Shown here: in pieces, positions 12,795 to 45,032 of the stretch
Position numbering within the stretch: position 1 is the stretch's first letter
Layout: every line of letters starts with the position of its first letter
Program-made: the position numbers and the translations under genes
Origin: Candidatus Nomurabacteria bacterium
GTDB taxonomy: Bacteria > Patescibacteriota > Minisyncoccia > Phycocordibacterales > UBA2100
Direction of reading: 5' to 3'
Length of the DNA: 64,000 bases
NCBI GenBank assembly: GCA_943356775.1
Contig: CALRFU010000001.1
Coordinates: 78,891 to 142,890, forward strand
The notes under the pieces: model-generated
Told to the model about the DNA's origin: nothing
The model's database searches: none
The model's input: the letters and a program-made list of their open reading frames with translations, nothing else

Positions 12795-13241
12795 CTATTC
12801 CGAAACGTTGAAAAGAGCCTCATCAGGGAACCACCATGGCGAACACGTCCAGGACGCAGTGGTGATGCGGGAATCGATGGCTTCTTTCTGGTCTCCACCG
12901 CCTACAATCACCCCGCTCGTAGTAGGGTCAACTGTGTATGTGCCATCAGGAGATATGACAACGCGTAACTGCCCAGAAGCATTGCCCTTTACTGTTGCCG
13001 TTTCGAGCAGAATATTCCCTTTGTTGATGAATAGGGCGCCTTTATCCGTGCCCTCAAAATTAGACCTTGTATAGCTACATGAAGTTGGTGGGATAGTTGC
13101 GACGTTTCGTTGCTGAAACATTCGTACAACGTCCGCACCGTTAGGAGTTTGTACGTGCCGATACAGGATATAGCAGGCAAATAAAATGACCCCAGCCAGG
13201 AAAACTGAAGCAACGTAAAAGAGACCTCTCGCAATTGTCAT
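12795..13241 (-). CDS. Hypothetical membrane-anchored protein
   Basis: Start taken at MTIARGLFYVASVFLAGVILFACYILY (single TM) followed by about 120-aa extracytoplasmic domain. The longer ORF would overlap uvrC. Confidence 0.4.
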   Translation of the reverse strand: MTIARGLFYVASVFLAGVILFACYILYRHVQTPNGADVVRMFQQRNVATIPPTSCSYTRSNFEGTDKGALFINKGNILLETATVKGNASGQLRVVISPDGTYTVDPTTSGVIVGGGDQKEAIDSRITTASWTCSPWWFPDEALFNVSE

Positions 13242-13245
13242 GTCA

Positions 13246-14535
13246 CTAGTATATCTTGCCCCGACGCTTTCGATGCCACGAAATCGCAAATCTGTGAGCT
13301 TCGTTGTTGGCAAGCAAAATATCGCGCTCATAGGCTTGTATTGCACCCTTGTCACCAATGAGTCGCTCAGGCTTATGAAATTGATTTTTGACAACACCCA
13401 CTATCGGTATGCTTATCCCCGTCTGTTTTAGAAGCGTCTGAACTGCGCGCATCTGGCCGATTCCCCCGTCGACGACAAACACGCGCGGCAAGGGCCATTC
13501 AGGATGATTGAGACGCCGCGAGAGCGCTTCTTTGAGCGAAGCCACGTCATCATTGGTCGCCGTTTGAATTTTGAATTTACGGTATGCCGCTTTTATTGTT
13601 TCGCCGCCGTCCACTACAGTCATCACAGCCACGGTCTCCGCGCCACTCGTATGTGCGACATCATATGCCTCTATCCGTATGCCGCCTGTCCTGAGTCCTA
13701 TCGAAGGGCCGCCGGACGCTATACGATGTTCATCTTTGATAAGCGATACGTCTCGGATATGTTCGAGAGCGTGCATCTGTCGACGCAGCTGCGTTGCTTC
13801 CTCGAATTTCTCAGCCCCCGCTGCGACCTTCATTTCACGCGCAAGTGCCCGCTTTAAACCCATGAAATTACCTGAAAGAAAAGTGGAGATGTGTTTAACA
13901 CGTTGCGCATACTCTTTTTTACTCACCTCGCCCGTGCACACGCCGGGACAGAGCCCTATCTGGCGATTGAAACAAGGTTTGCATGTTCGACCTCGTAGGT
14001 CGCTCATGTTCGACTTCGTAAGTCGAACATTCTGGTCGGGGCACGGTACACACTTCGCATCCCGGAACGGGAATATTTTCCGGACTATCTTCAGGGCTTC
14101 CTGAAGTTGCGTGCCGTGTGGGAAGGGGCCGAATGTTTTTTTGATGTCTTTTGTATCCCAATTCTGGTAGAGCTCACGGCCTCGTACGATGAGCACCCGC
14201 GGGTAGTCTTCCTTTGTTATCACAACATAATTAAAACTTTTGTTATCTTTCTCATCGACATTGTACGGGGGCTGATGCTTCTTGATGAGATTTGCTTCGA
14301 GTATTAAGGCTTCAAGTATCGAATTCGTTTTTGTATGCGTGATTGTTTGTGCTTCCGCAACCATGCCGACGATTCTTTCGCCGCGACCTTTTATCAAATC
14401 CGAAGAAAAGTAGCTTCGAACACGGTCGCGCAAAGACGTAGCTTTCCCGATATACAGTATCTTTTTACCTTTTTTAAACACATAGACTCCCGGCTCATCG
14501 GGTAGTTTGAACTTCTCTAAGTCCGTACGTTTCAT
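13246..14535 (-). CDS. uvrC: Excinuclease ABC subunit C, short form lacking C-terminal (HhH)2
   Basis: N-terminal GIY-YIG (GVYVFKKGKKILYIGKATSLRDRVRSYF), Cys-rich segment, UvrBC-like region, C-terminal RNase H-like endonuclease (IEAYDVAHTSG; VVDGGIGQ). 429 aa. Confidence 0.85.
   Translation of the reverse strand: MKRTDLEKFKLPDEPGVYVFKKGKKILYIGKATSLRDRVRSYFSSDLIKGRGERIVGMVAEAQTITHTKTNSILEALILEANLIKKHQPPYNVDEKDNKSFNYVVITKEDYPRVLIVRGRELYQNWDTKDIKKTFGPFPHGTQLQEALKIVRKIFPFRDAKCVPCPDQNVRLTKSNMSDLRGRTCKPCFNRQIGLCPGVCTGEVSKKEYAQRVKHISTFLSGNFMGLKRALAREMKVAAGAEKFEEATQLRRQMHALEHIRDVSLIKDEHRIASGGPSIGLRTGGIRIEAYDVAHTSGAETVAVMTVVDGGETIKAAYRKFKIQTATNDDVASLKEALSRRLNHPEWPLPRVFVVDGGIGQMRAVQTLLKQTGISIPIVGVVKNQFHKPERLIGDKGAIQAYERDILLANNEAHRFAISWHRKRRGKIY
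13984..14031. repeat. Two overlapping copies of a 25-nt palindromic element (one exact, one degenerate) inside uvrC
   Basis: ATGTTCGACCTCGTAGGTCGCTCAT overlapping ATGTTCGACTTCGTAAGTCGAACAT. The exact copy recurs in uvrA. Forms an 11-bp stem with a 3-nt loop. In-frame; encodes NVRLTKSNMSDLRGRT. Confidence 0.7.
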
Positions 14536-14643
14536 TGGCTTGAGTATACAGAAATACCCTATCCACTGCGAATGGTATTTGACTTTTCTCTGAGGTCGGC
14601 TATACTTAGATTTTAATGACCTCCAAGAAGTTTCGATTCAAGA

Positions 14644-14706
14644 ACACCCGCCCGGGTGCATTTTTTTACCTCTCCAATTCGTCCCCCATTCGGGGACTTT
14701 TCTTTG
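14644..14706 (+). promoter_or_regulatory. Tandem terminator-like hairpins in the carA leader (possible attenuator)
   Basis: CACCCGCCCGGGTG followed by TTTTTTT, then GTCCCCCATTCGGGGAC followed by TTTTCTTTGT, immediately before the carA ATG. Confidence 0.4.
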
Positions 14707-14707
14707 T

Positions 14708-15757
14708 ATGAAGTTGTACCTCGAAGATGGCACGGTTTTCGAAGGAAAAAGCGTCGGCGCTTCAATAAAATCGGGAAAACAAGTCCACGGCGAGGTCGTT
14801 TTTAATACTGGCATGGTTGGATACCCTGAAGGATTTACCGACCCTTCTTACGCAGGTCAAATTCTCGTCTGTACGTATCCCCTTATCGGCAACTATGGCG
14901 TACCGGACCTGAAAACTCTTGAATCCGAGAAAGTGCAGATAAGGGGACTTATCGTTTCAGAATATTGTGAAGAATACTCACACGCCAATGCAAAAATGTC
15001 TCTGGGACAGTGGCTGAAAGACTCCGGCATTCCCGCGATATCAGGAATCGATACGCGTGCACTCACGAAGAAATTGCGCGAGCGAGGTGTGATGCTTGGA
15101 CAGATGAGTGAGGGCACAGCAACAAAAACATTCAACGACCCGAATGAGGAGAATCTTGTCGCGGCAGTCAGCCCAAAAAAGAAGAAAGTCTATGGCGATG
15201 GCGCTATAAAGATAATCGCTCTCGATTGTGGAATGAAAGAGAACATCGTGCGTTCACTTGCAAGACCCGGAGTAACCCTTATCCGTGTCCCTTGGGATTA
15301 TGATTTCACCACCGAGAAATATGACGCGCTCTTTATATCCAATGGTCCAGGAGACCCTACCCAATGCACTTCGACCATCAATCATATCCAGGCGGCAATG
15401 CACGACAGTAAGCCAATACTGGGCATTTGCCTCGGCAATCAGCTTCTGGCGCTTGCCGCAGGAGCTTTCACGTATAAGCTCAAATACGGTCATAGGGCTC
15501 AGAATCAGCCCGCCATCGAGTCCACCACTGGGAGGTGCTATATCACCTCCCAGAACCACGGATTTGCGGTAGATACGAAGACGCTTCCTGACGGCTGGGA
15601 GGAGTGGTTCTCTAATGCCAACGATGGAAGCAACGAGGGTATCCGTCACAAGAGCAAGCCATGGCGTTCAGTACAATTCCACCCGGAAGCCAATCCTGGT
15701 CCTACCGACACCGCATGGATATTCGACGAATTTTTAAAGTCCCTCAAGACTGTATGA
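14708..15757 (+). CDS. carA: Carbamoyl-phosphate synthase small subunit
   Basis: 349 aa with CPSase small-subunit N-domain and class I glutamine amidotransferase (GICLGNQ catalytic Cys, HG..). Confidence 0.9.
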   Translation: MKLYLEDGTVFEGKSVGASIKSGKQVHGEVVFNTGMVGYPEGFTDPSYAGQILVCTYPLIGNYGVPDLKTLESEKVQIRGLIVSEYCEEYSHANAKMSLGQWLKDSGIPAISGIDTRALTKKLRERGVMLGQMSEGTATKTFNDPNEENLVAAVSPKKKKVYGDGAIKIIALDCGMKENIVRSLARPGVTLIRVPWDYDFTTEKYDALFISNGPGDPTQCTSTINHIQAAMHDSKPILGICLGNQLLALAAGAFTYKLKYGHRAQNQPAIESTTGRCYITSQNHGFAVDTKTLPDGWEEWFSNANDGSNEGIRHKSKPWRSVQFHPEANPGPTDTAWIFDEFLKSLKTV

Positions 15758-18700
15758 CTATCAAACCAAAAAAAATATTGCTCTTGGGCTCAGGAGGTCT
15801 CCGCATAGGTCAGGCGGGAGAGTTTGATTACTCCGGCTCACAGGCTATCAATGCTTTCAAAGAAGAAGACATCCGGGTTGTTCTGATGAATCCGAACATC
15901 GCGACAGTACAGACAGATGAGAAACGCGCCGACACAGTGTACTTCCTCCCACTCACAGAGAAATTTGCGGCAGAAGTCATACGGAAAGAACGCCCTGACG
16001 CGATAGCGTTATCGTTCGGCGGACAAACGGCACTCAACCTCGGACTCTCGCTTGAAAAAAACGGAGTACTCAAAAAATACGGAGTAAAAGTCCTTGGCAC
16101 ACCCGTATCAACAATCCGCGACACGGAAGACCGTGAACTTTTCGTAAAACGACTCAAACAAATAGACGTGAAGACAGCCCGCAGTCGTGCGACGTCCAAC
16201 GTCGCTGAAGCCAAGAAAGCCGCAGAAGAAATCGGGTACCCGGTCATGGTCCGCTCCGGATTCGCGCTCGGCGGCGAAGGTTCAGGAGTCGTACGAAATG
16301 AAAAGGATTTGGTCGCCAAACTTTCAGAAGTCTTCCGCAACGTCTCACAGGTTCTTGTTGAAGAGTATCTCGGCGGGTGGAAAGAAATCGAATACGAAGT
16401 CGTGCGCGACCGCGCCGACAACTGCATCACCGTCTGCAATATGGAGAATTTCGACCCGATGGGTATTCATACCGGAGAGAGCATCGTTGTCGCGCCATCG
16501 CAAACACTCTCGAATGCCGAATATCACGGACTCCGTGAGGTAGCTATCAAGACTATACGGCACCTCGGTATCGTCGGCGAATGCAATATTCAATACGCAC
16601 TCCATCCTTCAAACGGCGATTATCGCGTCATCGAAGTGAATGCCAGGCTTTCGCGCTCATCAGCACTCGCCTCAAAGGCGACTGGATATCCGCTTGCCTT
16701 CGTCGCCGCAAAATTGGCGCTTGGATATACCCTGCCTGAAATAAAGAATTCGATTACGAAGAAAACCAGTGCCTGCTTCGAGCCCGCGCTCGACTATGTC
16801 GTCCTCAAGATTCCGCGGTGGGACCTCAACAAATTCGAGAATGCCGCTCCCCGCATCGGTACCGAGATGAAGAGCGTCGGCGAAGTGATGGCAATCGGAC
16901 GCTCATTTGAAGAAGCGCTGCAAAAAGCTCTCCGCATGCTCAACATCGGGGCATACGGCCTCACCGCACAGAAAAACGACAACTTCCGAATACCGGATTA
17001 TGCCGACGAGATAAAAAACCCGACCACCCGCCGCGTCTTCGCGATTGCCCAAGCTCTTCGTGACGGGGTTTCTGTCGAAAAAATACACGACATGAGCGCG
17101 ATTGATCTGTGGTTTCTCCACAAGATGCAAAACATCATCACACTCGAGCATGAATTGAAACGTAAAAAATTGAATCCGACTCTCATGCGCCGTGCGAAAC
17201 AGCTTGGATTTTCTGATGCGCAGCTTGCAATCATTAAGAATACAAATGAATCTGCCATCCGAATACTTCGGAAAAAGTTGAAGGTTCTTCCCGTCATTAA
17301 ACAAATAGACACGCTTGCTGGCGAATTCCCTGCCGAGACCAATTACCTCTACCTTACCTATCACGGCACCGAGAACGACGTTGTTCCGGGTAAAAAGCAG
17401 ATAGCCGTCCTCGGAAGCGGTCCGTATGCGATAGGTTCATCCGTAGAATTCGATTGGTCGAGCGTACAGGCACTGCGTACGCTTAAGCGCGAGGGGTACG
17501 GCACGATAATGATTAACTACAATCCGGAGACTGTTTCCACCGACTACGACACCTCCGACCGTCTCTACTTCGAAGAACTTTCTCTCGAACGAGTTCTGGA
17601 CATTACCGACTTCGAAAAACCTCAGGGCGTAATCGTCTCTACCGGCGGACAAATACCAAATAACCTCGCTCTGAAACTCGAGAAAAACAAAATCCGGATT
17701 CTCGGTACTACGCCTGAAAACATTGACCGCGCTGAAGACCGACACGTTTTCTCCAAGCTGCTTGATAGCCTCGGCATCGACCAACCGGATTGGGCGGAAC
17801 TGACGACGCTCGCCGCAGCCTTGCAAACGGCCGAAAAATTGGGGTACCCGGTACTTGTCCGGCCTTCTTACGTCCTTTCGGGAGCCGCCATGGCCGTCTC
17901 GATGGATAAGACTTCACTCGTGAAATATCTCAAACGCGCGGTCGACATCTCTTCCGATCACCCGGTCGTCATTTCCAAATTCATCGAGAACGCCCGTGAG
18001 ATTGAGATAGACGGAGTAGCGAAGAAGGGCGGCCTCGTCGTGTACGCCATCACTGAGCACGTAGAAAACGCCGGCACTCACTCGGGTGACGCAACCGTAG
18101 TGCTTCCACCGCAGCGCACCTACATCGAGACTATCCGCCGCGCCAAACACATTGCCAAGGGCATTGTAAAGGAACTCAACATTACCGGACCGTTCAATAT
18201 CCAATTCCTCGCAAAAGACAACAGGCTACAGGTCATCGAGTGTAATTTGCGCGCTTCCCGCAGCTTCCCTTTCGTATCGAAAGTCACCGGATACAACTTC
18301 ATCGACATCGCAACGCGCGCGATGCTCGGTCTCGATGTCGCGGGCAACTACCGGACGCTGGAGCTAGACTTCGTTGCCGTCAAATCCCCTCAATTCTCAT
18401 ACGGTCGCATCAAAGGTGCCGACCCTATCTCCTACGTGGAAATGGCATCTACTGGCGAAGTCGCCTGCTTCGGAGACACATACTCCGAGGCTCTTTTGAA
18501 ATCCATGATGGCTGCAGGATTCCGCCTGCCAAAGAAGAATGTACTTGTATCGCTCGGCAAAGAGGAGAATAAAGTGAAATTACTCCCAGGCATTCAAACA
18601 CTTGTAGGGATGGGTTTCAAAATATTTGCGACAGAGCAAACTGCAGAATTCTTACGCGAGAAGGGGGTGAAGTGTGAGAAGGTCTACAAGATAAGTACCG

Positions 18701-18936
18701 CGAAGCATCCAAACGTCTCGGACCTGCTCGAAAAAGGTACGCTCGACCTTATCATCAACATCCCTACTCGTGCATTCCAACGCGAATCGACCGATGGCTT
18801 CACCATCCGTCGCAAAGCAATCGACATGAACATTCCTCTCCTTACGAATCGACAGCTTGCCGACGGTTTCATTACTGCCCTCGCAGAACAAAAAGGTAAC
18901 GGATTGAAAACGAAATCGTGGGAAGAGTACCGGTGA
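15754..18936 (+). CDS. carB: Carbamoyl-phosphate synthase large subunit
   Basis: Start [31 protein letters not shown] overlapping carA stop (ATGA). Duplicated ATP-grasp halves, oligomerisation and MGS-like domains. About 1060 aa. Confidence 0.95.
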   Translation: [1060 protein letters not shown]

Positions 18937-18940
18937 TTCT

Positions 18941-21589
18941 CTATTTCTTGCCTCTTTTTAGAATTCGCTTCAGGTAGTAGCCGGTGTGTGAACCATCAGT
19001 CTTCGAAACTTCCTCGGGGGTACCTTTAGCGACAATTTTGCCGCCGCCCTGGCCTCCTTCCGGACCCATGTCGATAATGTAATCGGCACACTTGAGTACA
19101 TCGAGATTGTGTTCGATGGCTATGACCGTATTACCCCGTTCGACAAGTTTTTGCAGAATATTTACAAGCTTCGCCACATCGTCGTAGTGAAGCCCCACCG
19201 TCGGCTCGTCGAGCAGATATATGCTTTTTGTAATGAACGGGCGGTAGAGTTCTGATGCAATTTTGACGCGCTGCGCTTCGCCGCCGGAGAGCGTCGTCGC
19301 GCTCTGGCCAAGCTCGAGGTATCCGAGACCCACATCAATCAGGCTTTGCATTCTGTCCGAGACAGCCGGTATGTCTTCAAAGAATGAGTACGCCTCTTCC
19401 ACGGTCATTGAGAGCACATCGTGAATGCTCTTTTTCTTGTATTTCACTTCGAGCGTCTCTTTCATAAATCGCTTGCCGTTGCACACATCGCACGTGACGT
19501 AGACGGTCGGAAGGAAGTGCATCTCTACCGCGACCAAGCCGTTGCCCTGACATGCTTCGCAGCGACCGCCTTTGACGTTGAACGAGAATCGGCCCGGCCC
19601 CCATGCGCGGGCACGGGATTCTTCCGACATCGCAAACATATCTCGGATATGCGTCCAGGCCCCTGTGTATGTCGCAGGATTCGAGCGCGGCGTGCGCCCT
19701 ATCGGAGACTGGTCTATCAATATCGCCCGCCCGAGATATTCGGTGCCTGAAAATTCTTTTGCATTGTATATTTTGGCAGTCCGATATCGCTTATCAAAAC
19801 GCGCCTGCAAATTCCTGTGGAGAATTTCGTAGAGAAAAGTAGACTTGCCGGAACCGGAAACCCCGGAAACAACGACAAACTTCGCGAGTGGTATATCGAC
19901 ATTGAGGTTCTGTACATTGAATTTGTTCGCGCCGCGGATCTTTATCTTGCCCCTGTCGGCCGTCCTCCGTTGCTCCGGTATTTCTATCATCGTCTCCTCG
20001 CGTAAATACGAGAGGGTGCGTGAACCGGATTTGTTGGTCTTGGCGGTAAGGAGTTCATCGAGCCAACCCTCAGCGACGATTTCCCCTCCATGAACACCGG
20101 CACCGGGACCCAAATCCACGATGTAGTCTGATGCGTAAATGGTATCTTCGTCATGCTCCACGACGAGTACCGTGTTGCCCAAATCACGGAGATGTTTAAG
20201 CGTATTTATGAGCTTATCGTTGTCGCGCTGGTGGAGGCCGATAGTCGGCTCGTCGAGTACGTAGAGAGCTCCCACAAGCCCTGAACCGAGTTGCGAAGCG
20301 AGCCTAATGCGCTGGGCCTCACCTCCCGATAGGGTGTTGGCTTTGCGGTCTAGAGTGAGATATTCGATTCCCACATTGAGCATGAATTGAAGCCGGCTCG
20401 TTATCTCCTTTATGACAGTACGTGAAATATCCTGCTCCTTCTTACTGAGCTTTAGTTTCTCGAAGAAATCTTGCGCATCCTGAATGGAAAGACCGGCAAG
20501 CCGCACGATACTCATTCCTTCAACCGGCCCTTTGCCTTCTTCTCCCGTGACCTTACCCAGGAGCACATTGAGGGCTTCCGGCCGCAAACGCGCGCCCTTA
20601 CACACGTCGCACGCCTCATCGCCAAAGAAATATTTCGTTCCGAGTCCTTTACACTCCGGGCAAGCTCCGTAGGGCGAGTTGAATGAGAAGAGGCGCGGCT
20701 CTATCTCCGGGAACGAAAATCCGTCATACGGGCACATAAACTTTGCGGAAACAATGGTGCTCTCACCTTCCGCATCGGTAATTTTTACCAGGCCCTCGGA
20801 TTCGGTGAGCGCACGCTCTATTGCCTCGCTCGCACGCTCGCGGGCGGCTTTTGGATCGTCCACGAATTCTGAGACGAATAGCTCATCCACCACCACGTCG
20901 ATATCATGCTTGTGATGCTTTTGGAGTTCAATACGCTCGCGCAGAGACTTGTCCGCACCGTCGACAACAACCTTTTCAAATCCCTTATTCAAAAGGTCAT
21001 AGAGCAACTGGTAGTATTCACCTTTGCGACCAACAACGACGGGCGAGCTGATGCGTATCTTTGCAACAGATACCCCCTTCGTCAGTATGTTCGACTTCGT
21101 AAGTCGAACATCTGATGTGTGTTTTATTGCCTTCTCGACGATATTCAGCACCGACTCCAAAATTTCTTCATTTGAATGTTTGCGCACCTCGCGTCCGCAA
21201 ATAGTGCAGTGTGGCTTCCCTACCCGCGCATAGAGCACGCGCAAGTAGTCGTATATTTCGGTGATAGTCGCTACCGTCGAGCGCGGGTTGTTGGATCGGC
21301 TCTTTTGGTCTATGGAAATAGCGGGGGACAAGCCCGTAATCTCATCCACATCCGGCTTTTGCATCTGGCGTAAAAATTGACGTGCATAAGCGGAGAGAGA
21401 CTCAACGTACTTGCGTTGACCTTCTGCAAATATCGTATCGAACGCGAGTGAAGACTTCCCGCTCCCGGAAAGCCCCGTGAAAACAACCATTTTGTTGCGC
21501 GGTATCTCGACACTCACATTCTTGAGGTTGTGCGTGCGGGCGCCCTTAATGACGATCTTATCGCTTCCAATATGCTTTTTTTCGGCCAT
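18941..21589 (-). CDS. uvrA: Excinuclease ABC subunit A
   Basis: 882 aa with two ABC ATPase modules ([12 protein letters not shown]; [13 protein letters not shown]) and zinc-finger Cys pairs. Signature LSGGEAQR occurs twice. Confidence 0.95.
21087..21111. repeat. Exact copy of the 25-nt palindromic element inside uvrA
   Basis: ATGTTCGACTTCGTAAGTCGAACAT, identical to 14007..14031. In frame; encodes D160-VRLTKSN-I in UvrA. Confidence 0.7.
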
Positions 21590-21651
21590 ACAAATGTTTG
21601 CGACCCCTGCTATGCGCTAGGGGTTAGGGTGGTCACTATACCACAATGGCT

Positions 21652-22569
21652 TTACAGTATCATCGCCTCTTCTTTGAGCTCAATTTTGAACGTATCGAAA
21701 ACTTTGAGTTTGATACTTTGCGCCAAATTTCGTACATCATGTGCAGTCGCGTTCCCCTGATTGACGATGTAATTGGGATGCTGAAGCGAGGAAATGGCGC
21801 CGCCGACGGTAGCGCCCTTCATACCCGCTTTTTCGATAAGCCATCCGGCGGGCACGCTACCTTCTCGCGACTTAACCCCCTTTTCTTTCTCAAACATGTC
21901 AATAATATTTTGTGGTGCAACAGGATTCATAAAGAACGAGCCCGCAGCTTGTATGTTCTGTAAATGACGCTTCTCGCGCTCCGCGATCGTTTCTTCTGCA
22001 AGTTTCGCACTCTCACTGGAGTTTTTCTTTTGCAATTCAAGAAAGACACGCGTGATAAGCCACTTGGGATTCTGTTTGAAAAAACTATTACGATAGGAGA
22101 ATCCGCATTCTGTGTTCACGAAAATTCTGGTCTCACCTGAGTACATGTTGATTGCTTTCACTTTGTGTACAAAATCCTTGATTTCAGCTCCAAAAGCGCC
22201 CGCATTACCTCGTGCGGCACCACCGATTGTACCCGGAATCCCCGCAAGTTTTTCCCAACCCCCCAAGCCTTTTACACCAGCCGCCTGAATCAAGCTAAGC
22301 AGATTACATCCTCCGTCGGCATCAAGCTCACGATGAGCAAAAGAGAAATTTCCACTCACAATGTGTATGACCAATCCATCGTATCCGTCATCGGGGACCA
22401 AAACATTACTGCCACCCGCCAGTATGATACATCGGATGCCCTTTTCATGCGCCCATCCAATTACTTCGCGCATCTCGTCCTCCGTAGCTACATCGACAAA
22501 ATATTTTGCCGCACCGCCAATCTTGAATGTGGTGAGAGGCGCCAACGGGACATTCTCCTGAATTTTCAT
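21652..22569 (-). CDS. murB: UDP-N-acetylenolpyruvoylglucosamine reductase
   Basis: 305 aa with FAD-binding PCMH domain (TFKIGGAAKYF..ILAGGSNVL) and MurB C-terminal domain. Confidence 0.85.
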   Translation of the reverse strand: MKIQENVPLAPLTTFKIGGAAKYFVDVATEDEMREVIGWAHEKGIRCIILAGGSNVLVPDDGYDGLVIHIVSGNFSFAHRELDADGGCNLLSLIQAAGVKGLGGWEKLAGIPGTIGGAARGNAGAFGAEIKDFVHKVKAINMYSGETRIFVNTECGFSYRNSFFKQNPKWLITRVFLELQKKNSSESAKLAEETIAEREKRHLQNIQAAGSFFMNPVAPQNIIDMFEKEKGVKSREGSVPAGWLIEKAGMKGATVGGAISSLQHPNYIVNQGNATAHDVRNLAQSIKLKVFDTFKIELKEEAMIL

Positions 22570-45007: not shown

Positions 45008-45032
45008 GGCCCCCATGCATCGCATGGGGGCC
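45008..45032. terminator. Perfect GC hairpin between convergent uppP and GNAT genes
   Basis: GGCCCCCATGC-ATC-GCATGGGGGCC: 11-bp perfect stem; flanks only weakly T-rich. Confidence 0.4.

Follow-up and report, generated by a model that had tools for sequence, protein, structure and literature searches.

A palindromic 25-mer in uvrA and uvrC of a patescibacterial genome belongs to a dispersed, REP-like repeat family linked to a RAYT-like Y1/HUH transposase

Why should the uvrA gene of an ultra-small bacterium carry, in frame, a 25-nucleotide (nt) palindrome that also occurs letter for letter in uvrC? We asked this of a 64,000-nt stretch of DNA from a Candidatus Nomurabacteria bacterium (assembly GCA_943356775.1, contig CALRFU010000001.1, positions 78,891 to 142,890 of the forward strand), to which we refer as the window. 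An initial annotation, made from the sequence alone, had described the uvrA copy as an unusual in-frame, hairpin-forming insertion in an essential repair protein. Our data show that the 25-mer is no singular insertion and belongs to a dispersed family found in many unrelated genes of many Patescibacteria genomes. We consider it likely that the 25-mer is an element resembling repetitive extragenic palindromes (REPs), resident in Patescibacteria of the Kaiserbacteria/Paceibacteria type, and that it is spread and homogenised by a Y1/HUH transposase of the IS200/IS605 group that resembles the REP-associated tyrosine transposases (RAYTs).

The intact palindrome in uvrA, ATGTTCGACTTCGTAAGTCGAACAT as read on the + strand, lies at 21087-21111 and consists of 11-bp arms around the 3-nt centre CGT. 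Its host gene (18941-21589, - strand; recognised by Pfam and by homologs) encodes 882 amino acids (aa) and reads the element as GAT GTT CGA CTT ACG AAG TCG AAC ATA, or DVRLTKSNI, at UvrA residues 160-168. An identical palindrome occupies 14006-14030 in uvrC (13246-14535, - strand), a gene for a 429-aa protein with GIY-YIG and RNase H domains and without the helix-hairpin-helix (HhH) tail. There the peptide is NVRLTKSNM, in the same frame as in uvrA, so that both exact copies share the reading VRLTKSN. We confirmed the identity of the two copies at these positions and, by translation of both open reading frames (ORFs), the shared relative frame; both had been claimed in the initial annotation. 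A degenerate third copy, the C/G arm variant ATGTTCGACCTCGTAGGTCGCTCAT, lies at 13983-14007, where it abuts the intact uvrC copy with a 2-nt overlap (AT, the last two bases of the degenerate copy) and encodes (S)DLRGRT. The window thus has three matches to ATGTTCGACN7GTCGAACAT at ≤3 mismatches, against 0.03 expected from shuffles; the exact 25-mer had 0 matches in shuffles. The proposal that the element forms a hairpin also held, with a calculated stability of -18.1 kcal/mol (z = -6.3 against shuffles) for the mRNA-sense strand. An Rfam search of window positions 13000-22000 at E <= 1 returned no match. The 25-mer is present in independent assemblies, so it is no assembly artefact: over 3249 bp, a contig of the metagenome-assembled genome (MAG) GCA_943355075.1 matches the window without a difference, an ENA assembly made independently has 1 base changed and retains the 25-mer, and the peptide is the same in six protein-cluster members, each from a separate assembly.

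Scanning one genome per bacterial species with the 19-base core GTTCGACNTCGTANGTCGAAC, for which our arithmetic gives about four chance matches, we obtained 78 loci, 76 of them from Patescibacteria. Carriers are labelled Kaiserbacteria, Paceibacterota or Parcubacteria, along with MAGs labelled Saccharibacteria. We set aside locus L043 (Pseudomonadota) as a chance-level match, with non-complementary bases at the two variable arm positions and a stop-containing frame, and locus L065 (Phycisphaerales), which has no match to the 25-mer at ≤4 mismatches. At that threshold the scanned loci and the window together hold 116 copies, about 110 of them family copies in the 76 Patescibacteria loci, with at least 13 in LCQW01, at least 19 in JAIFWM01 and 3 in the window. 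Viral contigs scanned with the same core pattern gave no match.

The family has sharp borders, with an information content of about 2 bits per position within the 25-mer and less than 0.2 bits in the flanks. Even the outer four bases, which lie outside the scan pattern, are conserved (A in 97 and T in 114, and at the other end A in 113 and T in 92, of 115). The centre TCGTA/TACGA is invariant across family copies, and changes in the arms are compensatory: the inner pair is T..A, C..G or A..T, and arms such as TTGGAC/GTCCAA and ATGGAC/GTCCAT also occur. Singletons make up the majority of copies; doublets with 43-64-nt spacing are found in the JAIFWM MAG (L014/L049/L051/L059), and tandems of a new and an old copy in the window uvrC, in L074, and in L023 as compared with L025. 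Complementarity extends beyond the 25-mer by at least 2 bp in 24 of 73 copies, against 4.6 expected. These extensions differ in sequence and reach up to 12 bp (for example at L030 4365-4413 and L078 5714-5756). Possible sources are existing palindromes that served as insertion sites, a weak consensus longer than the 25-mer, or extension templated by the hairpin.

The link to a transposase comes from 14 loci in related genomes, where a conserved ORF of about 220 aa is accompanied by three copies of the same hairpin. The upstream hairpin lies 9-28 nt before the ATG (73 nt in one locus), the internal hairpin lies in frame at codon 44-55, and the downstream hairpin lies near the end of the stop codon, from 4 nt before it to 37 nt after it. 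Examples are L038 2870-3610, L048 4368-5123, L034 490-1233, L084 10031-10765, L085 9961-10675 and L086 4433-5257. The gene adjoins gap in four loci and rnhB in three, and each genome among the loci has one close transposase locus. The ORF matches Pfam PF01797 (Y1_Tnp) at 28.2 bits, above the gathering cutoff of 23, and its best NCBIfam match is REP_Tyr_transpos. An HYH triplet (the HUH motif) and the motif Y137-x3-N141-P are invariant in 45 homologs, and Y137-x3-N141 would correspond to Y115-x3-N119 of E. coli TnpA_REP (PMC3479197). In a Foldseek comparison of the predicted structure, the top 30 PDB matches comprise only the TnpA proteins of IS608, ISDra2 and IS200 plus 4er8, which is E. coli TnpA_REP with a REP hairpin; the best were 2a6m, 2xo6, 2f4f and 4er8, with probability 1.0. 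The peptide encoded by the internal hairpin forms a loop that follows helix 1 and precedes the HUH strands, and the model has low confidence there. The family is large (3049 matches at E <= 1e-3), with many homologs on short contigs, and its named members come from Kaiserbacteria/Parcubacteria-type MAGs, where they are annotated as 'hypothetical' or 'transposase'.

The hairpin varies with the lineage of the transposase. Every homolog has a hairpin-encoded, lineage-specific peptide in the loop between EFND and IVDIHGW, and the stems belonging to different lineages (ATGTTCGACTT, ATGAACGACTT, ATGATGGAGAT and ATATCGGGATT) share a constant centre, with at least five stem variants overall. DNA from the three further lineages, those with ATGAACGACTT, ATGATGGAGAT and ATATCGGGATT, has the same three-hairpin layout built from different stems. 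A second, distant Y1 gene (38% identity) occurs at L008 4403-5029 in LCQW01; it is bracketed by its own palindrome, AACCAGCAAGGCgacGCCTTGCTGGTT, and a copy of the 25-mer family lies 81 nt downstream. The three-hairpin Y1 loci have the anatomy of a REP/RAYT system (PMC2817692).

Most copies lie inside genes. We found 66 of the 116 copies (57%) at least 15 codons inside stop-free ORFs of at least 150 codons, a measure that gives 82% for random positions in the same loci. Five of the six frames of the element are stop-free, the sixth containing TAA, and all five are used (VRLTKSN 23 times, MFDLRSRT 14, MFDFVSRT 14, VRLRKSN 9 and CSTYEVEH 5). Because five frames are in use, we take the DNA and not the peptide to be under constraint, and because all five stop-free frames occur, the frame shared by uvrA and uvrC has little weight. 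The block uvrC-carA-carB-uvrA holds 10 of the 112 copies from other genomes and all three window copies (window 13246-21589, and L001, L004, L006, L026, L029, L042, L054, L066 and L077). This enrichment possibly reflects a bias towards the region or, as suggested in PMC3733652, towards repair genes; the count is confounded by inheritance of orthologous sites, which makes the sites non-independent. In L064 (2510), L051 (1867), L072 (4657) and L038 (2870), the longest stop-free ORF that spans the copy begins within 0-3 codons of it, and in L072 and L038 this ORF has just 55-67 codons. In such copies translation might start at the ATG that ends the element, giving an element-encoded N-terminus.

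We next consider what the element does to UvrA. Residues 9-153 and 176-300 of the window protein match residues 21-165 and 166-284 of G. stearothermophilus UvrA, and residues 154-175 are extra with respect to every solved UvrA: the window protein goes from 153 to 176 while 2r6f runs from 165 to 166. These codons (21065-21130, - strand) form a clade-specific linker that encloses the 25-mer. Because the Pfam UvrA_inter match spans residues 176-272, the 25-mer belongs to the UvrB-binding domain, where it separates the first helix from the first strand; the initial placement in this domain is thus borne out both by Pfam and by the alignment to solved structures. The further claim that it lies between the Cys pairs of the first zinc module needs one correction: the second pair is degenerate here and not CxxC. 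At window positions 20720-20740 (UvrA residues ~284-290) this second pair reads CPYD, and C286, Y288 and D289 are invariant in 44 aligned orthologs. An AlphaFold2 model of UvrA places a helix at 140-158, a coil at 159-176 and a strand at 177-184, with a predicted local distance difference test score (pLDDT) below 50 at 160-171, in a model whose mean pLDDT is only 66.

We aligned the N-terminal 330 aa of 120 close UvrA orthologs with MAFFT and found the linker, between VEKARK and LTKGVS, to be hypervariable, at 6-30 aa. Nine orthologs clearly have a family copy at the same position, two of them with two copies, and two more look degenerate there. The copies include VRLTKSN, VRLRKSN with the centre flipped, and VRPTRSN with C/G arms. 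Element-free orthologs have unrelated linker DNA of similar length, and some have another palindrome. The linker of L079 uvrA (~1440-1470) contains GCGGCAAGGC-aag-GCCTTGCCGC, that is GCGGCAAGGCaagGCCTTGCCGC, encoding ARQGLA. That of L082 uvrA, a cluster member with 81.5% nucleotide identity to the window uvrA, contains AAGGTCTGACCTT-ggggaattct-AAGGTCAGACCTT, with AAGGTCNGACCTT doublets that encode GLTLGNSKGQ. The peptide DFVNPDI recurs in the UvrA proteins P0027, P0028 and P0075 and within some transposases. Overall, the check for a gap against orthologs has a mixed outcome: the segment is a gap against distant UvrAs, and close orthologs without the element have unrelated sequence of similar length or other palindromes there. 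The uvrA copy adds a peptide predicted to be disordered to a hypervariable, probably tolerant linker and is most likely neutral for the protein. An effect of the 25-mer on translation or on UvrA function is possible.

UvrC presents a similar picture. Its copies sit in a hypervariable loop between KC.PC and CKPCFNRQIGLCPGVC; measured between KC.PC and C(K/R)PCFNRQIGLCPGVC, the loop ranges from 0 to more than 30 aa. Across genomes it contains family copies, an MMEIRSPS variant and the recurring peptides ANSHELA, ARQGLA and TSQARSHLT; LKTKNSKLKT is another sequence that recurs in the UvrA and UvrC loops, at the peptide level, and the UvrC proteins P0272, P0301, P0318 and P0333 are among those with such recurring sequences. 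These recurring peptides would derive from other palindromes, a case made at the DNA level for ARQGLA alone, in L079 uvrA. Two other UvrC positions are occupied elsewhere (in L026 and L004), giving three occupied positions across genomes. The UvrA and UvrC loops have the look of landing sites common to several hairpin families, or of their graveyards. At window positions 13600-13650, UvrC residues ~296-312 (ASGGPSIGLRTGG) coincide with the position occupied in L004; the stretch is about 7 residues longer than in L004 and about 9-10 residues longer than in other orthologs, and the extra residues may be a remnant of an older insertion. The window UvrC is also short, at only 429 aa with no C-terminal HhH region, and is without a precomputed UVR (PF02151) match, which most orthologs have. 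Elsewhere in the window, the other perfect hairpins (at 1672, 7421, 45008, 51768 and 53199) are not family members. The one at 45008-45032, a perfect 11+3+11 hairpin (GGCCCCCATGCatcGCATGGGGGCC) between two convergent ORFs, is probably a bidirectional terminator.

Comparison of orthologous sites shows that the element is retained in place, and suggests that one variant is exchanged for another there. Across 41 orthologous site pairs, the flanks of ±90 nt are 68.5% identical and the element 88%, and the differences within the element are almost exclusively the paired arm change and the flipped centre. The same pattern of persistence and variants is seen in carA, carB and other genes. Classical transposition, or independent insertions that hit one and the same nucleotide, would account for this less well than replacement in place or gene conversion, in which a hairpin, once present, is overwritten by the variant current in the genome.

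If the family works as E. coli TnpA_REP and IS608 TnpA do, the palindrome would extrude as a hairpin in single-stranded DNA, and the transposase would recognise its invariant apex (T-CGT-A) and stem, cut at the hairpin foot through a 5'-phosphotyrosine intermediate, and carry out strand transfer. With almost no intergenic space in these genomes, the surviving copies would be those whose landing, or later replacement, kept the reading frame of a tolerant surface loop in a protein. Catalysis, the origin of the copies and their neutrality are the parts of this explanation that we infer. A bolder version, which we put forward tentatively and hold to be less likely than its opposite, is that the transposases form a distinct patescibacterial RAYT lineage whose own hairpin is obligatory, in frame within its gene and at both borders, and whose hairpins are mainly intragenic and, once in a protein loop, are exchanged there time and again for the master variant of the moment, by replacement or conversion that the transposase mediates. 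If that were true, UvrA, UvrC, CarA and CarB would have 'hairpin sockets' in which the peptide is set by the repeat family of the genome, and REPs would both supply streamlined genomes steadily with variation in protein loops and be a record of how RAYTs copy REPs.

Several observations weigh against a RAYT-like transposase as the source of the family. The transposase ORF scores 35.5 bits (E = 8e-9) against the NCBIfam RAYT model NF047646, below its cutoff of 80; its AlphaFold2 model has a mean pLDDT of only 58.8 and is good for residues 1-125 only; and when PDB sequences were searched with it, by sequence or by profile, only noise came back. A tblastn search of the 64-kb window detected no transposase gene, and the usual neighbours gap and rnhB are absent from it as well. 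The canonical 5' GT(A/G)G head of REPs, which E. coli TnpA_REP requires (PMC2817692, PMC3479197), is absent, with GTA(A/G) at the apex instead. Among 115 flanks we saw neither a target-site duplication nor a target motif, and at the uvrA site no clean empty counterpart sizes the insertion, including in L079, L080 and L081 (93-94% aa identity) and L082. A length of 25 nt does not divide by 3, so that the conserved unit, if simply inserted, could not by itself keep the frame. Finally, different variants persist at exactly the same nucleotide position in orthologs, which suits classical transposition less well.

The last of these points is shared by an alternative in which host processes (template switching, hairpin-templated repair and gene conversion) make and homogenise the palindromes, and the Y1 gene has merely been colonised by them. 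Same-position variants with a flipped central triplet, the lack of target-site duplications and empty sites, and the excess of flank complementarity (24 of 73 copies against 4.6 expected) all suit such processes. Against them stand the three-hairpin architecture at the Y1 gene in 14 of 14 loci and with at least five stem variants, the distant Y1 gene of L008 with its own different palindrome, and stems that follow the transposase lineage, and on its own host repair leaves identical 25-mers in unrelated genes unexplained; we regard this alternative as unlikely. Still less probable, in our view, is that selection keeps the 25-mer as a signal for protein binding or DNA uptake, with a host function. 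Patescibacteria are thought to rely on DNA uptake, and the copies are better conserved than their coding flanks and occur in many genes and in both orientations. Against this, stems diverge freely by lineage with only the hairpin and apex retained, copies per genome number in the tens and not in the hundreds or thousands, some copies are tandem and decaying (window 13983-14007; L023/L025), and the tie to the Y1 transposase is tight.

We give an equally low probability to a regulatory mRNA hairpin or functional peptide selected in the nucleotide excision repair (NER) genes uvrA and uvrC. The idea draws on both intact window copies being in NER genes in the same frame, on the 10 of 112 copies from elsewhere that lie in the uvrC-carA-carB-uvrA block, and on an earlier report of a REP excess in repair genes (PMC3733652). 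Yet the copies lie mostly in unrelated genes and in five frames, the encoded peptide is predicted to be disordered, close UvrA orthologs are without the element or have a different palindrome, and the block count is confounded by inherited orthologous sites. An assembly or chimera artefact would be conceivable given that repeats can misassemble and that many transposase homologs are on short contigs; it is refuted for practical purposes by the agreement of independent assemblies, by intact, in-frame ORFs and by orthologs from other samples with the element at the same site.

With mobilisation by a RAYT-like transposase as the preferred explanation, the 'insertion' in uvrA and uvrC calls for no device specific to repair and is explained by the ordinary biology of mobile repeats. 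REP/RAYT-like systems seem to be present in ultra-small Patescibacteria, shifted from intergenic DNA into protein loops. For annotation, this means that repeat-encoded peptides are to be expected in conserved proteins and that assemblies may break at the repeats. The same-position variants and the hairpin within the transposase gene also provide a comparative handle on how RAYTs multiply and homogenise REPs. A literature search found no paper on REP/RAYT systems in Patescibacteria, and we are aware of no earlier description of a REP within a rayt ORF.

The nearest known counterparts are the REP/RAYT systems of Proteobacteria, such as E. coli TnpA_REP (RayT/YafM) with its REPs and bacterial interspersed mosaic elements (BIMEs), where the dispersed element is likewise a short palindrome, there of 20-40 nt (PMC2817692, PMC3479197). 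In both, the Y1/HUH gene is closely flanked by its palindromes, one of them at or next to the stop codon; the hairpin covaries with the transposase lineage, its stem kept by compensatory changes; and the transposase gene seems fixed in its chromosomal position, here by gap or rnhB. The inverted orientation of the flanking hairpins is not assignable here, the element being symmetric except for its variable 3-nt centre. The patescibacterial system differs in having an invariant TCGTA apex and no GT(A/G)G head at the foot, a near-perfect 25-nt palindrome without a bulge, mostly intragenic copies with one in frame within the transposase gene, and a protein of about 220 aa with a long C-terminal region that scores below the NCBIfam RAYT cutoff. 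REPs are moreover defined as extragenic (PMC12306157), and 66 of the 116 copies here lie deep in ORFs.

Intragenic REPs have themselves been described in other phyla, and the initial view that an in-frame hairpin in a repair gene is unusual was overstated: REPs occur in frame in uvrA of Thioalkalivibrio, in both uvrA genes of Opitutus terrae and in uvrB of R. conorii, and within uvrD, polA and recBCD, with an excess in replication and repair genes (PMC3733652). Those GTAG/CGTC REPs (Di Nocera et al. 2013, PMC3733652) also occur as single and tandem copies and were suggested to lie in flexible loops. They are, however, the intragenic minority of mainly intergenic families with GTAG/CGTC tags, whereas 57% of copies here are deep in ORFs, and several palindrome families occupy, in different genomes, the same loops here. 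REPINs, which are REP doublets, are described as non-autonomous mobile DNA built from REPs (PMC3116915); the doublets that might be compared with them are a minority here.

In its placement, the 25-mer also resembles the Rickettsia palindromic elements (RPEs), the classic example of in-frame repeats within genes. They are likewise palindromic inserts in functional genes of an organism with a reduced genome, where the added surface peptides are tolerated. RPE-1 is much longer, at roughly 100-150 bp, and we know of no dedicated RPE transposase. With the IS200/IS605 elements IS608 and ISDra2, the system shares the predicted transposase fold, an enzyme that acts on hairpins and the absence of target-site duplication. 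Those insertion sequences are autonomous, with several full-length copies, distinct left and right ends and a fixed tetra- or pentanucleotide target; here only the hairpin is dispersed, with one close transposase locus per genome and no target motif, and we do not classify the family as an IS200/IS605 insertion sequence. Nor is it a MITE (a miniature transposable element with inverted repeats), being 25 nt against 70-300 bp and having unrelated flanks with no direct duplication, or a CRISPR repeat, its copies being dispersed, mostly single and within genes with no regular array. What is distinctive about the patescibacterial family is the combination of a hairpin defined by its apex and not by a GTAG head, a mostly intragenic distribution, a copy within the transposase gene itself and residence in the phylum Patescibacteria.

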